Virus record (IMG/VR): IMGVR_UViG_3300023178_000006
Origin: a virus
Taxonomy: Duplodnaviria; Caudoviricetes
Strand: one strand, 5' to 3'
DNA length: 64,000 nucleotides
Positions 12,744 to 18,005 of the stretch are shown here, piece by piece. The notes under the pieces were generated by a model, which worked only from the letters and a program-made list of their open reading frames with translations, did no database searches and was not told the DNA's origin. Both the position numbers and the translations under genes were made by a program. Numbering within the stretch: position 1 is the first letter of the stretch; each line of letters starts with the position of its first letter.

Positions 12744-13736
12744 ATGGCAGACGACAAAAATACATTCGTTGCTGACGACGGTATTTCAACTGTCCCACAA
12801 CCGGCGAAGCCTGAGGGTGGTGAAGGTAATAGAAAGCCTAAAAAAGAAGATAAGCCTAAAGAGGTAGGTGTAAAAACTCCTGGTCAAGAAAAAGCCGGTG
12901 AGAAAGTACCTACAGCTGAAGATGTCGAAGTAGAAGGAACTGAAACAATTGAAGAAACAGAAGAAACTGTGGAAGAAGTTGTAGTAGAATCTTCAATCGC
13001 TTCTATCATCGAAGGTGAAGAACTTTCTGAAGAATTCAAAAACAAAATTGAAGTTGTTTTTGAAGCAGCAGTTAACGAACAGGTCACAGCTCAAGTAGCA
13101 GCTATTAAAGAAGAGCTTGAAACTAAGCTCGAAAGCGAATTAGATGAATCAATCGAAACTCGCATGAAAGACATCGTTGAAAACGTAGACAAGTATCTTG
13201 ACTATGTAGTTGGCGAGTGGATGGAAGAGAACAAGATTGCAGTAGAAGCTGGCATTAAAGTAGAAATGGCAGAATCTCTCATGAATGGTCTTAAAGATTT
13301 ATTCACTGAGCACAATGTATCTATCGACGAAGAAACTTTCGACGTAGTTGCAGAACTTGAAACACAAGTTTCTGATTTAGAAGAAAAATCAAATGCTTTA
13401 GTTAATGAGAATATCGAATTAGCTAAAACTATTTCTTCTATCAAAGCAGAAAAAGTTTTCGAAGAAATGACTGAAGGTCTTTCTGACAATCAGAAAGAAA
13501 GATTTAAAGTCCTTTCAGAAAAACTAGATGTTGAAGATTTAGAGTCTTATACTGAAAATCTTCAAGTAATCAAGGAATCTTTCTTTAGTGAAGGCAAAGT
13601 TGCCACACCTAAAGTAGAAGAAGTCGAAGAAGACGAAATTATTCTAGAAGAACAGGAAGTTAAAAAACCAGCTTCTGATTACGCTTCTGTAAATGCTCTT
13701 GTTGAAGCACTCGATGCGAGAAAAAAGAATAATTAA
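12744..13736 (+). CDS. gp22: prohead core scaffold gp22
   Basis: Acidic coiled coil, DKYLDYVVGEWMEEN; between gp21 and gp23. Confidence 0.9.
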   Translation: MADDKNTFVADDGISTVPQPAKPEGGEGNRKPKKEDKPKEVGVKTPGQEKAGEKVPTAEDVEVEGTETIEETEETVEEVVVESSIASIIEGEELSEEFKNKIEVVFEAAVNEQVTAQVAAIKEELETKLESELDESIETRMKDIVENVDKYLDYVVGEWMEENKIAVEAGIKVEMAESLMNGLKDLFTEHNVSIDEETFDVVAELETQVSDLEEKSNALVNENIELAKTISSIKAEKVFEEMTEGLSDNQKERFKVLSEKLDVEDLESYTENLQVIKESFFSEGKVATPKVEEVEEDEIILEEQEVKKPASDYASVNALVEALDARKKNN

Positions 13737-13753
13737 TTAAAAATTGGTTTTAT

Positions 13754-13761
13754 TATAAATA
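13754..13761 (+). promoter_or_regulatory. T4-type late promoter
   Basis: TATAAATA upstream of gp23. Confidence 0.8.
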
Positions 13762-13794
13762 AAATTTACGTTAATTAAAAATAGGAGAGACATT

Positions 13795-15123
13795 ATGTCA
13801 AACTATCAACAACTCGTGGAAAAGTGGGAGCCAATTTTAGAGCACGACTCTTTTTCACCAATTAGCGATCAACATAGGAAAGCAGTAACAGCTACTATCC
13901 TAGAGAACACAGAAAGAGCACTTTCTGAAACAGGTGACTTGTCTGCAAACATGACAAGCCTTCTTTCAGAAGCACCTACCAACGATGCTGGTACAGGTGG
14001 TTTCTCTGCAAGTGTATCTCCAGGAAATGCAGCAGCTGGTCCAACAGCTGGTTATGACCCTATCTTGATTTCATTAGTACGTAGAGCTATTCCTAACCTA
14101 ATCGCTTACGATATCTGTGGTGTTCAGCCAATGACTGGCCCAACAGGTTTAATCTTCGCGATGAGAGCACGTTACGGTTCTCAAGGTGGTGCGGAAGCTT
14201 TATATGCTGAAGCCGATACCGACTTTGGTGGTACTGGTACACACGCAAATACTTTGCCAAACGCTAATACAACGCTTATTACAACTGGTACAGGTATGGA
14301 CACAGCAGCGGCTGAAGCTTTAGGCGACGGTCAAGGTACAAACTTCGCAGAAATGGCATTCTCTATTGAGAAAGTTACTGTTGCTGCTAAGACACGTGCT
14401 TTAAAAGCTGAATACACAACTGAACTTGCTCAAGACTTAAGAGCAGTCCACGGCCTAGACGCTGAAACAGAATTGGCTAACATTCTTCAATCTGAAATCT
14501 TAACAGAAATCAACCGTGAAGTTGTTAGAACAATCTACAAAACAGCTGAAGTAGGTGGTGACAATACTGCTGCTTCTGGAGTATTCGACTTAGACGTTGA
14601 TGCAAACGGAAGATGGTCAGTTGAGAAGTTCAAAGGCTTAATGTTCCAAATCGAACAAGAAGCTAACGCTATCGCAAAAGGAACTCGTAGAGGGAAAGGT
14701 AACATCGTTATTTGTTCTTCAGACGTAGCTTCTGCATTGCAAATGGCTGGTGTATTGGATTACGCTCCTGCCTTAAACTCTAACTCTTTAGAAGTTGATG
14801 ACACAGGTAATACTTTTGCTGGTGTTCTTAACGGAAGATTCAGAGTATACGTTGACCCATTCGCAGGCGGCAACTACTTAGTAGTTGGTTATAAGGGTTC
14901 ATCTGCATTTGATGCAGGTTTATTCTACTGCCCATACGTTCCTTTACAAATGGTTCGTGCGGTTGGTGAGAACAGCTTCCAACCAAAAATTGGATTCAAG
15001 ACTCGTTACGGAATGGTTGCAAACCCATTCGCTGAAGGTGACGTTTCTAACCAAGGTTTGGGTGCTCTTACTCAAGACGTCAACAAGTACTACAGAAAAA
15101 TTAGAGTCACAAACTTATTCTAA
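13795..15123 (+). CDS. gp23: major capsid protein gp23
   Basis: GVQPMTGPTGLIFAMR, ELAQDLRAVHGLDAE, FQPKIGFKTRYG. Confidence 0.98.
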   Translation: MSNYQQLVEKWEPILEHDSFSPISDQHRKAVTATILENTERALSETGDLSANMTSLLSEAPTNDAGTGGFSASVSPGNAAAGPTAGYDPILISLVRRAIPNLIAYDICGVQPMTGPTGLIFAMRARYGSQGGAEALYAEADTDFGGTGTHANTLPNANTTLITTGTGMDTAAAEALGDGQGTNFAEMAFSIEKVTVAAKTRALKAEYTTELAQDLRAVHGLDAETELANILQSEILTEINREVVRTIYKTAEVGGDNTAASGVFDLDVDANGRWSVEKFKGLMFQIEQEANAIAKGTRRGKGNIVICSSDVASALQMAGVLDYAPALNSNSLEVDDTGNTFAGVLNGRFRVYVDPFAGGNYLVVGYKGSSAFDAGLFYCPYVPLQMVRAVGENSFQPKIGFKTRYGMVANPFAEGDVSNQGLGALTQDVNKYYRKIRVTNLF

Positions 15124-15171
15124 TTTTAAGTACTCCATAAAAATAAGAGTAGCATTCAGCTACCGAATTTT

Positions 15172-15201
15172 AAAGGGTCTCTTTCAGGGACCCTTTTTTT
15201 T
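15172..15201. terminator. intrinsic terminator, probably bidirectional, between gp23 and convergent - strand genes
   Basis: AAAGGGTCTC-TTTCA-GGGACCCTTT followed by T-run. Confidence 0.85.
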
Positions 15202-15433
15202 ACTTTGTTTTATGCTTATCGAAATACGAACGAATCAGGAAGATTCGTGTATAAGCTACGACTGTCATTACACAAGTCACTAGCGTTCCCAGCGTGAGTG
15301 GGTCTGTGATTCCAAACTTATCAATAAAGATATACAATAAAGACAAGTTCAATGGATAGTTGATAAGAAGACCGGTTGCAACTTGAGTGCCGGTTTCTTT
15401 ATGAATTCGTTTTGTTCTTGTAGATAATTTCAT
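15200..15433 (-). CDS. small membrane protein
   Basis: Start moved to ATG at 15433 (MKLSTRTKR) because the longer ORF overlaps the tRNA; two hydrophobic segments. Confidence 0.6.
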   Translation of the reverse strand: MKLSTRTKRIHKETGTQVATGLLINYPLNLSLLYIFIDKFGITDPLTLGTLVTCVMTVVAYTRIFLIRSYFDKHKTK

Positions 15434-15440
15434 AATAAAT

Positions 15441-15515
15441 TGGTAGCCCGTAGGAGAATCGAACTCCTGTTGCATGGATGAAAACCATGTGTCCTAACCA
15501 CTAGACGAACGGGCC
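15441..15515 (-). tRNA. tRNA-Glu (UUC)
   Basis: GGCCCGT acceptor/ACGGGCT, D-arm GTCT-AGTGGTTA-GGAC, CATGG-TTTTCAT-CCATG anticodon arm, AGGAG-TTCGATT-CTCCT T-arm, encoded CCA. Confidence 0.96.
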
Positions 15516-15519
15516 GGAT

Positions 15520-15573
15520 AAAAAAACGGCAATCCTTCCATATACGCCTATCAAAGGTATGTCAAGGATTGCC
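15520..15573 (-). terminator. terminator-like hairpin at the 3' end of the large RNA
   Basis: GGCAATCCTT...AAGGATTGCC 10-bp stem followed by G and a T7 run on the - strand. Confidence 0.7.
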
Positions 15574-16290
15574 TAGGTATTGAATTTCAGTGTCACAATC
15601 GTCATTTGGTCTTACTGCCGGACTACCGGGCCCGTCGACTAAACGGGGATTTCAAACTACCTTAAAATCAAAATTTGGGGGGATGGATTTGTGTTAACGT
15701 AATTCGTTAAATAGTGTAGAATTGTTAATCGTAAATCCTGTCCCTACCCCGAGCTCGAAGCCCCTATTATTGAAACTGGTATAAAATCGCAGGTACGTCT
15801 CTCAGACTAACATGGTACTCGTTAATCCCAGTCTCGGTTGGTACCTAAGTACCATCTCTGCCTAAAGGGAATAAAGCCTGGACCGCCGTCCTGTGTCCCT
15901 CGGTTTCCTTGCGGGGAATTTGAGGTTCTTCCTTTTCCATTGCGGACCTTCCGAGGGTCTAGTACTTCATCTTGTGTTTCCGCACCTCTTTGGTCTCTAC
16001 AGTATCGAGCGTTTCTTCATACATGGAGACGCTTTCCCACCTGCTCTAATGATTTTGTTGTCACCCGTATAATTACGTACTTTCCAGTACTGGCCTTCTC
16101 ATTACTCTAACCTATCCTAGCTTGCAATCTTTGGACTCGGTTAGTTTCAGCTGCCAGTCGGGCGACTTTACTTCCTACACTTAAGACCTTCACGTTTGGT
16201 AAGAACGTCCATCAATCTAATTCTCTTCGCCGAATGTGACCACTATTTCAGACACTTTCCCTTTCCGGCGGGGAGTATTCCGTCATTATG
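15520..16290 (-). ncRNA. candidate large structured ncRNA (~770 nt; GOLLD/ROOL-like class, family unassigned)
   Basis: No credible ORF; GC-richer than flanks; own TTGACA-17-TATAAT promoter and terminator; many hairpins plus a 5'-3' long-range helix; adjacent to tRNA. Confidence 0.75.
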
Positions 16291-16296
16291 TTAGAT

Positions 16297-16325
16297 ATTA
16301 TACCACAGCTTTTTGAAATTGTCAA
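16297..16325 (-). promoter_or_regulatory. sigma70-type early promoter driving the large RNA
   Basis: TTGACA-17nt-TATAAT. Confidence 0.9.
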
Positions 16326-16355
16326 CTGTTTTTTGCAAAAAAGTTGCACTTTTTT
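16320..16355. repeat. 36-bp promoter-upstream repeat, copy 1 of 3
   Basis: TGTCAACTGTTTTTTGCAAAAAAGTTGCACTTTTTT identical at 16320, 34965, 35416. Confidence 0.9.
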
Positions 16356-16363
16356 TCAAGAGC

Positions 16364-16579
16364 TTATTTTGAGTTTACGAACTCATTCAGTTCAGAAGCT
16401 ACAGAAATGATATCCTGTGCTGAAACTGAGGTTGTAGGTAATGATTTCTTATCATCAGGGTGATTGTCGTTATGATTATACGTAGCGTCAATCTTCCTTT
16501 GTAAGTTATCGTATAGTATGGATTGAGCCATACTGAGTAGGTCGGCACGTATCTCGTACCCAGATTTTCCGTTTGACAT
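16364..16579 (-). CDS. hypothetical protein
   Basis: 71-aa ORF with GAGGA SD. Confidence 0.7.
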   Translation of the reverse strand: MSNGKSGYEIRADLLSMAQSILYDNLQRKIDATYNHNDNHPDDKKSLPTTSVSAQDIISVASELNEFVNSK

Positions 16580-16616
16580 AATTTCCTCCTTGTGTGTATG
16601 TGTGTTTATGTCTTTA

Positions 16617-16925
16617 TTAAACTGTTAGGTATTCGTTAATTCTCCTAACAGTGTCTATTTCAGTTTGTGGATTATTCCACATCCTGTTTCTTGGACTTGG
16701 ATGCGGTATCTTTAAATGAGACACCTCATTCTTATCCAACCAAGTAGAAGCGATATTTCCTAAAGCAATAACTTTATCATATCGTTTTACTAAGTTAATG
16801 TCATCGTATGAGCGGTTAGTCCAATCAAATTGCCTACCTACCCACTTGATAACTCTGTTCTTTGTTGGTGATTTTTCTGGTGTTGTTTTACCAGGCGCTT
16901 CACCTACTATAATCAAAGATTCCAT
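16617..16925 (-). CDS. small uracil-DNA-glycosylase-like fold protein
   Basis: IIVGEAPG, VIALG and PHPS motifs of the UDG superfamily; short. Confidence 0.6.
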   Translation of the reverse strand: MESLIIVGEAPGKTTPEKSPTKNRVIKWVGRQFDWTNRSYDDINLVKRYDKVIALGNIASTWLDKNEVSHLKIPHPSPRNRMWNNPQTEIDTVRRINEYLTV

Positions 16926-17089
16926 TATATACTTATACGTTCCATTGCAGTTCTATAACCATTTTTACGAACTCCACTTTCAAACATAATTGCTTCTTTC
17001 ATGAATGTGAATACGTATTCCGCTTTGAGTACGTCATCAGCATCTTTAACGATTACTTTAAATGCATTTTCTTTCTTATTCTTCTTCAT
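16925..17089 (-). CDS. hypothetical protein
   Basis: Start moved to ATG at 17089 (MKKNKKENAF) with GAGGA upstream. Confidence 0.55.
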   Translation of the reverse strand: MKKNKKENAFKVIVKDADDVLKAEYVFTFMKEAIMFESGVRKNGYRTAMERISI

Positions 17090-17819
17090 TATCTTTCCTC
17101 GTGATGTATAACAACCAATAAGAATGACTTGGTCTAGCATTCTTGAGTAGATGGTCTTGCCACATGAACAATCCATCAACCTCTCCAAACTGACTTCGTG
17201 TACGTACCTCGTGACGAGGTGAATCAACGAAGTGATTCAAAAAGTTATCTCTAAAATGAAAGAAGTCCTTTAAACCACCAGGTGTTGCTTGAGTATGAAC
17301 TTCAACCACCATGTGCTTAACATTGTTGAGCATATAATCAAGGTTCTCTTCTGTAAATACATCGTATTCAGCACCTTCAATATCTGCTTTAAGGTAGTCA
17401 ATATAATCTATATCATACCTTTCAACGAGTTGTTTAAAAGAAATCTTATCGATATCTTCATTAGTTGTTTCATCATGAATAGTTTTGTATACACCATCAG
17501 CAGAACCAATAATTGCATTAATAGGAAATACAATAGGGTCTGGTTCGTTCATCATAAACTCAGATACATTATCAATAGCGCATTTGAGTAGGTGTCTGTT
17601 ACCTTCAACCATGTAAACTTTAGATGCACCACCATCACATGCTAGTGCTGAGAACATACCAACACAAGCACCAAGGTCAACTACTACATCACCAGGTTGT
17701 ACTTTATACCACCATTCATATTCTTTTTCTTGAAAGAATTCAGTATAAAAAACTGATATCATCTCAGATACCAGTCCGCCCATATTCATAACTTGATTGA
17801 GCGCCTTTTTTCTAATCAT
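17076..17819 (-). CDS. FkbM-family methyltransferase
   Basis: VVVDLGACVG SAM motif, LKADIEGAE, VVEVH. Confidence 0.85.
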   Translation of the reverse strand: MIRKKALNQVMNMGGLVSEMISVFYTEFFQEKEYEWWYKVQPGDVVVDLGACVGMFSALACDGGASKVYMVEGNRHLLKCAIDNVSEFMMNEPDPIVFPINAIIGSADGVYKTIHDETTNEDIDKISFKQLVERYDIDYIDYLKADIEGAEYDVFTEENLDYMLNNVKHMVVEVHTQATPGGLKDFFHFRDNFLNHFVDSPRHEVRTRSQFGEVDGLFMWQDHLLKNARPSHSYWLLYITRKDNEEE

Positions 17820-17822
17820 AAC

Positions 17823-18005
17823 CTAAAGCTCGTTATATTTTACGATTTCCTGGTCGTCACCAAACCCTTTAGTTTTTAGATAACCATCAGCAATAAGCGA
17901 ATCAATCACTAATGTGACCATACGCTTTCGGTTTGCTTGTAAACCCCAAATATATCCAATAACAGTAAATACAATCGCTGTAAACCAGAATTGTTCCATT
18001 GACAT
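17823..18005 (-). CDS. small membrane protein
   Basis: N-terminal hydrophobic helix. Confidence 0.6.
   Translation of the reverse strand: MSMEQFWFTAIVFTVIGYIWGLQANRKRMVTLVIDSLIADGYLKTKGFGDDQEIVKYNEL

Follow-up and report, generated by a model that had tools for sequence, protein, structure and literature searches.

A large structured RNA gene of a marine T4-like phage and the likely new RNA family to which it belongs

The window analyzed here, a 64,000-nt stretch of a Caudoviricetes virus record (IMGVR_UViG_3300023178_000006), contains an RNA gene of about 770 nt that runs from promoter to terminator at 16290-15520 on the minus strand. It is a stand-alone gene bounded by its own transcription signals, and its product is almost certainly a real structured RNA of a family not described before. 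In kind, this RNA resembles GOLLD and ROOL, but by covariance models it belongs to neither. Our best explanation as a whole, to which we give a probability of about 0.7, is a stand-alone early RNA gene of a new modular family whose product would be a trans-acting particle. Very few large RNAs with intricate folds are known from bacteria or phages, and the biological role of GOLLD, ROOL and OLE is still open.

The limits of the gene are set by two conserved signals. A sigma-70 promoter lies at 16297-16325 on the minus strand, where the initial annotation had claimed a perfect TTGACA-17-TATAAT; 12 of 12 consensus positions match, and a TG stands upstream. TTGAC(A/T)-17-TATAAT ends 6 nt ahead of the first aligned base in 56 of the 57 relatives with enough upstream sequence, and this constant distance indicates that the 5' end of the RNA coincides with helix P1. 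At the other end of the unit is a hairpin plus U7 terminator, so that the promoter-to-terminator layout proposed earlier is borne out, as is a GC content above that of the flanks (0.43-0.49 within the region versus 0.35-0.39 on either side).

The region had also been called free of ORFs, and we agree: ORFs on the minus strand reach at most 31 aa, and all frames are closed in some relative. The longest plus-strand ORF, of 90 aa at 15838-16110, could be taken to mean that the region encodes a protein, is a pseudogene or is spacer DNA without function. This ORF, however, has no PHROG match, and around the most conserved motif each of the frames, on both strands, shrinks to 25 codons or fewer in some relative. 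Those two results rule out a coding gene. The relatives differ by hairpin-sized insertions and deletions and by compensatory pair changes, comparative data that refute this group of readings, and we give them virtually no chance.

The family core consists of two domains of ~410-510 nt with 103 modeled base pairs. The minimal form (~405-430 nt) comprises promoter, two-domain core and strong terminator; the window core is 508 nt long (16289-15782), contains two insertions and is followed by three 3' modules, E1, E2 and E3. Helices were derived from compensatory changes together with RNAalifold, and two covariance models, R1 and R2, were then built. Folded as a single sequence, the window RNA is not significantly stable (z -1.18), and the structural evidence therefore comes from the relatives.

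Domain 1 (16047-16289, minus strand; model R1, 59.4 bits, E 3e-15) is closed by P1 (16288-16283/16052-16047). Its other helices are P3 (16275-16272/16175-16171), P4 (16271-16264/16233-16227), P5 (16255-16250/16241-16236), P6 (16219-16215/16187-16183), P7 (16208-16205/16195-16192), whose loop is conserved as YUUAYCAA, P2' (16162-16159/16067-16064), P8 (16156-16153/16094-16091), which carries an inserted hairpin, and P9 (16090-16086/16081-16077), which is capped by a GGAA loop.

Domain 2 (15788-16046, minus strand; model R2, 104.5 bits, E 9e-23) has a closing stack, P11-P13, around P14, P15 and P21, and P21 is in turn arranged around a P20/P16/P17 junction and a P18/P19 arm. The closing helix is GCAGGU/ACCUGC (16044-16039/15794-15789), followed by P12-13 (16032-16024/15804-15795), P14 with the invariant UGAAGAAACGCU, and P15 (15995-15992/15948-15945) with a 43-nt insertion. 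The remaining helices are P21 (15940-15937/15815-15812), P20 (15931-15928/15876-15873), P16 (15925-15922/15901-15898), P17 (15891-15888/15883-15880), P18 (15870-15867/15829-15826) and P19 (15853-15849/15844-15840). Invariant nucleotides cluster at the multi-helix junctions of the core, where UGAAGAAACGCU, GACACAAG, UUAACGAGUA and GGCAGCU are highly conserved. The 5' arm of P19, AUGGUACU, could instead pair with AGUACCAU, which spans junction and P21 3' strand, within 15812-15857; by eye, this alternative is impossible in relatives such as L113, and P21 itself covaries.

Support for these helices was measured as the number of pairs that change on both sides, with slid partners as the control. 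Over the whole core, ~91% of cells are paired and 85 of the 103 pairs have changed on both sides, compared to 10-17 per domain in the slid controls. In plain MAFFT alignments, 88.9% of cells are paired in domain 1 and 90.1% in domain 2, with 25 of 44 pairs (versus 6-9 slid) and 34 of 59 pairs (versus 6-14 slid) changing on both sides. The model-fitted alignments, A4 and A6, lean towards the model, and with that bias give 91.8% and 36 of 44 (10-17 slid) for domain 1, from 58 distinct rows, and 91.0% and 49 of 59 (10-16 slid) for domain 2; the plain alignments agree with them. All 19 of the strongest Watson-Crick-compatible mutual-information pairs in the concatenated core are in the model, and mutual information over the same core reveals no run of consecutive long-range pairs of the sort expected of extra pseudoknots or tertiary pairing. 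The RNA has the attributes of a large, ornate phage RNA: it exceeds 400 nt, lacks an ORF, is flanked by transcription signals of its own and has numerous covarying helices around multi-way junctions.

Several hairpins that the initial annotation had picked out by eye prove to be part of this structure. ACGUU/AACGU (16208-16192) is P7, in the form ACGU/ACGU; GUACU-GGAA-AGUAC (16090-16077) is P9; GGUAC-UUAG-GUACC (15853-15840) is P19; and CCCGU/ACGGG (15647-15631) and CCGG/CCGG (15629-15618) are hairpins A and B of module E2, each with compensatory changes. GGAUUU/AAAUCC is the stem of E1, maintained across variants in the same way, but the UUAACG/CGUUAA helix nested in it (15694-15710) is not confirmed: it never varies and is therefore evidence neither way, and UUAAC-AAUUC/GAAUU-GUUAA, with one compensatory pair, competes for its bases. 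Two proposals fell. For the GACC/GGUC hairpin (15959-15945), relatives have the upstream partner only, the GGUC arm pairing with GACC at 15995-15992. The long-range helix supposed to close the whole molecule (16244-16231/15601-15589) is strong in the window alone (-18.9 kcal/mol, z -2.5); among 12 relatives that share this 3' segment, the duplex does not outdo shuffled sequence, and it overlaps the covarying P4/P5 and the stem of hairpin C. From sequence comparison, the molecule is predicted to consist of two domains, each closed by its own helix, and then three 3' modules, without the long-range closing helix proposed earlier.

The 3' modules are optional, with members carrying zero to three after the core; the window has all three, which brings it to ~770 nt in total. 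E1 (15677-15764, minus strand) comprises a hairpin, GCU-UCG-AGC, and then a long stem, GGGGUAGGGACAGGAUUU/AAAUCCAUCCCCCC, around a conserved AU-rich element. The enclosing stem is preserved in 19 distinct variants, several with quite different sequences. E2 (15576-15661, minus strand) is closed by GGUA..UUGAA/UUCAA-UACC and holds hairpin A (15647-15631), hairpin B (15629-15618) and hairpin C (15617-15588), the last with a near-invariant loop segment, AAAUGACGAUUGUGA (15607-15593); compensatory changes occur in 4 of 4 stems. E3 (15520-15573, minus strand) is the intrinsic terminator of the window, a conserved long hairpin (15573-15528) with a 10-bp stem, GGCAAUCCUU/AAGGAUUGCC, a 26-nt conserved loop and U7 after it. 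This hairpin (helix 7) covaries, with both sides changing in 8 of 14 pairs, and in L101, L188 and L221 a separate terminator lies downstream of E3. Aligned by MAFFT, E2-E3 from 13 sequences is 97.6% paired, and 23 of 48 pairs change on both sides versus 2-6 when slid.

The relatives on which these counts depend were gathered from contigs with related capsid genes, with three conserved DNA patterns in IMG/VR and with one pattern in marine metagenomes, and the loci were then profile-searched to recover full-length cores. As the initial annotation had proposed, homologues were thus collected and tested for covariation, and ~60 relatives with strong compensatory change in alignments and covariance models were the outcome. 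They comprise 58 further distinct full-length cores plus fragments, forming 36 clusters below 96% identity, and every relative found is an IMG/VR or marine metagenome contig. When three different members were compared by blastn with 50,697 GenBank phage records, the tRNA part alone matched. A pattern scan of one genome per prokaryote species (GTDB) gave 38 matches and 0 true members, and model R2 has no match in the complete genomes of HTVC008M and Melnitz or in a 178-kb IMG/VR phage. Among 80 contigs with related capsid genes, many of which stop shortly past the capsid gene, R2 matches 3. The family is so far confined to uncultured marine T4-like (pelagimyophage-like) phages. One IMG/VR locus, L133:2006-2394, has a shortened form in which the match to domain 1 (158 nt) is followed by the 3' modules and most of domain 2 is absent; either a deletion that arose in nature or an assembly artifact may account for it.

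The phage of the window is itself a marine T4-like myophage, with scaffold and major capsid protein genes at 13795-15123. Its capsid gene, which is convergent with the RNA gene, shares 76-78% DNA identity with the capsid genes of Pelagibacter phage HTVC008M and Methylophilales phage Melnitz. A capsid gene is found within 4.5 kb of the RNA in 44 of 90 family loci, mostly downstream and convergent, which makes the position of the RNA syntenic. Other recurrent neighbors are small early ORFs, a denV-like gene, an SNase-domain gene and the porphobilinogen deaminase gene (hemC). Upstream of the RNA gene, a staphylococcal-nuclease-domain protein is encoded in 15 loci, and a weak pyrimidine-dimer glycosylase match of 22.2 bits, just below the Pfam 23-bit cut-off, is found in 29 (for this upstream pair, see L097:5874-6362 and L184:9197-9769). 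Beyond capsid synteny, no protein gene is constantly linked to the RNA in the family loci, and no RNA-related protein is constant. A link to a transposase, reverse transcriptase or nuclease was considered and rejected after the survey of neighbors.

A tRNA-Glu(UUC) gene at 15441-15515 on the minus strand, found by both Rfam 15 and ARAGORN, starts 5 nt past the U-tract. The tRNA adjacency pointed out in the initial annotation is therefore correct for the window, but it does not extend to the family: a tRNA adjoins the RNA in 11 of 30 loci examined, and all 11 belong to the window's subclade. The gap between U7 and tRNA-Glu is too short to hold a separate promoter. The tRNA is probably made by read-through from the promoter of the RNA and then processed at its 5' end, a step that would trim the large RNA as well. 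Contigs from RNA libraries include the tRNA stretch (15392-15532). The loop of the E3 terminator hairpin (15528-15573) contains TTGACA, 15 nt and TATATG, a weak promoter-like site facing the tRNA; the same element is kept in L101, where only a terminator lies downstream, so a role at the RNA level is more likely.

The same small gap bears on whether the RNA is a cis-acting leader or precursor, that is, the 5' part of a tRNA-Glu transcript or of downstream mRNAs, or their regulator. In some relatives the core or E1 leads straight into an ORF, as with hemC, which begins ~100 nt past the RNA in 22 family loci (e.g., L238:1213-2052, L083, L084 and L008), and such arrangements are what a leader would produce. 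Against this, what lies downstream varies (tRNA, hemC, small ORFs or a terminator alone) while RNA and promoter are constant, and the minimal forms are followed by strong terminators. Because the downstream genes differ among relatives, the RNA is not the leader of a fixed downstream gene, and we consider a cis-acting role very improbable.

A stand-alone gene should have a transcript, and the window RNA is expressed, as judged from contigs of RNA libraries. Eighteen metatranscriptome runs from salt marsh and seawater contain 38-68% of its sampled words, and all runs with such words taken together come from 19 studies. In four runs analyzed over 13700-17900, contigs start at 15764, 15798 or 15854 and end at 16260, 16348 or 16768, and the depths of the RNA are 32, 168, 70 and 5.5; these values, like those that follow, were read from assembled contigs, which define neither transcript ends, strand nor discrete species. 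The RNA equals or exceeds contigs of the exact-strain capsid gene, which have depths of 3-12, 60-130 and 10-27 in three salt-marsh runs, and the flanks reach 0-20 (15110-15390) and 0-4 (16800-17900). Such uneven cover between the RNA and its flanks favors transcription over DNA carry-over. One contig extends into the upstream ORF. The 3' modules appear in a single run, X1, at a depth of 3.5, which suggests that the abundant species may be the core without them. A relative of the minimal form is present in six RNA-labeled marine runs, two of which are just 5-6 million letters in size.

The identity of this transcript was sought in Rfam 15, which includes GOLLD, ROOL, OLE, RNase P, tmRNA and group I/II introns. 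This cmscan comparison, also proposed in the initial annotation, assigned neither the RNA of the window nor ten relatives to any family: at the gathering score, the whole window yielded only tRNA, and a laxly filtered search of 15300-16500 and the ten relatives at E<=10 yielded only tRNA and chance matches. Strong covariation in ~60 relatives together with this null result upholds the earlier suggestion of a GOLLD/ROOL-like RNA that fits no described family and may be a new class. ARAGORN found no tmRNA. RNase P, tmRNA and group I or II introns were rejected as candidates, given the lack of an Rfam or ARAGORN match and of a pseudoknot signal. AAGUCCG and GAUAUAAGUCC bear what we take to be a resemblance to motifs of RNase P conserved region I and the group I intron S element; the topology differs, however, with the segment pairing with an upstream strand in the covarying P13, and the models give no match.

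A ribozyme of another design, for example one that processes the neighboring tRNA precursor, would be in keeping with the gathering of invariant nucleotides in multi-helix junctions, which recalls catalytic cores, with the GNRA-type loops GGAA and GCAA, and with the tRNA that begins 5 nt beyond the terminator of the window. Yet Rfam has no RNase P, group I/II intron or small ribozyme match, mutual information shows no pseudoknotted core, and most relatives have no adjoining tRNA. Catalysis is accordingly improbable in our view.

Other RNAs invite comparison by their setting. The stable RNAs species 1 and 2 of phage T4, non-tRNA molecules of ~120-140 nt encoded in a tRNA gene cluster, are likewise located beside tRNA genes of a T4-type phage but are far shorter; blastn of the present region against the GenBank phages matches the tRNA only. 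Their function, as far as we are aware, is still unknown. IMES-1 to -4 and unnamed 'psRNA' groups are abundant in ocean metatranscriptomes and known from environmental sequence only. The IMES families are presumably in Rfam, and Rfam 15 gives no match to the present RNA. Full-text searching found no description of such an RNA in the papers covered, and neither a pelagimyophage genome survey nor a marine viral metatranscriptome study mentions a non-coding RNA.

The closest likeness is to GOLLD, which is also phage-encoded, 400-800+ nt in size, folded into many helices, often near tRNA genes and in some members marine (PMC12286853). In GOLLD, the 3' region is universally conserved and the 5' region less so (PMC12286853), whereas every full member of the present family has the 5' core and any of the 3' modules may be missing, and its members come from marine T4-like phage contigs only. 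ROOL is similarly large and ornate, is found close to tRNA islands in phages and prophages and has no protein partner that is known (PMC12286853), but it is described with several pseudoknots, in contrast to the absence of any detected here by mutual information. OLE, another large structured RNA, differs in that it is encoded on the chromosomes of Bacillota, has protein partners dedicated to it and is linked to oap genes; the present RNA has no match to its model and no linked protein gene. A GOLLD or ROOL so divergent that sequence-structure models cannot reach it would have the phage host, the similar size, the tRNA adjacency (in one subclade) and the marine origin known from some GOLLD RNAs (PMC12286853). 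The covariance models of both, however, find nothing up to E=10 in the window and ten relatives, which leaves this reading a very slim chance.

The P5 loop provides a further parallel. In standard P5 loops, 15 of 15 distinct variants have a central palindrome, UGCA, CGCG or ACGU, in some cases extended to UCGCGA; the control loops of P7, P9, P16 and P17 almost never have one. Because neighboring bases in a 5-8-nt loop are unable to pair together, retained self-complementarity points to pairing between two molecules. Kretsch et al. (PMC12286853) took palindrome-switching loops as evolutionary support for the intermolecular kissing loops that cryo-EM reveals in OLE and GOLLD: in GOLLD such a loop is a kissing contact, and in OLE symmetric switching among palindromic tetranucleotides supports a homodimer (PMC12286853). 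GOLLD itself oligomerizes; for the present family, self-association is a prediction from sequence, and with just three palindrome types there are few independent switches. In the window subtype (the window, L027 and L260) the P5 loop is non-palindromic, and the L001 subtype lacks P5, so the argument does not apply directly to the window molecule. The terminal loop of the P8 insertion in the window contains a palindrome, UUGCAA (16127-16122), whose core is the UGCA of the standard P5 loop; in the L001 type the equivalent loop has GUAC, whereas that of the L082 type is not palindromic.

By analogy, we tentatively suggest that the family self-associates through symmetric loop-loop contacts like those of OLE, GOLLD and ROOL, with lower confidence for the window molecule, and that the particle may provide a scaffold or decoy for some macromolecule of the host; we put the odds of this below even. 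The RNA could also act as a monomer and, as a scaffold or decoy, bind the ribosome or a protein of host or phage, with the palindromic loop being a protein site or due to chance. Such a binder would suit the highly conserved junction sequences (UGAAGAAACGCU, GACACAAG, UUAACGAGUA and GGCAGCU), the core that the window subtype keeps without a palindromic loop, and an abundance in RNA libraries that fits stoichiometric binding. It is at odds with the lack of a constantly linked protein gene, and switching among three palindromes with self-complementarity kept would be hard for a protein site to explain. We regard the monomer as unlikely.

Taken together, these observations favor the stand-alone RNA gene of a new modular family, for which a sequence of events can be proposed. 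Host sigma-70 RNA polymerase would transcribe the gene from its near-consensus promoter, presumably early in infection. The product would be a multi-domain structured non-coding RNA made of the core plus zero to three 3' modules, which most likely acts in trans as a folded particle and probably is not an antisense RNA, a leader or an mRNA. A bolder and more doubtful extension would add the family to the naturally self-assembling RNAs as their fourth class, dimeric or larger and produced massively as infection begins, so that some component of the host is captured or enclosed.

The family adds a new, independent class of large ornate RNA with an unusually well supported secondary structure, in which most of the more than 150 modeled pairs show compensatory changes. 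Its minimal form of ~410 nt is compact and suited to cryo-EM, natural modular variants exist, and the palindrome-switching loop yields a directly testable prediction of self-association. The RNA is present in ocean, estuary and salt-marsh metatranscriptomes, and a role in host takeover, if true, would matter ecologically. If self-assembly is true as well, the abundant T4-like phages that infect marine heterotrophic bacteria would have provided their first self-assembling RNA class.
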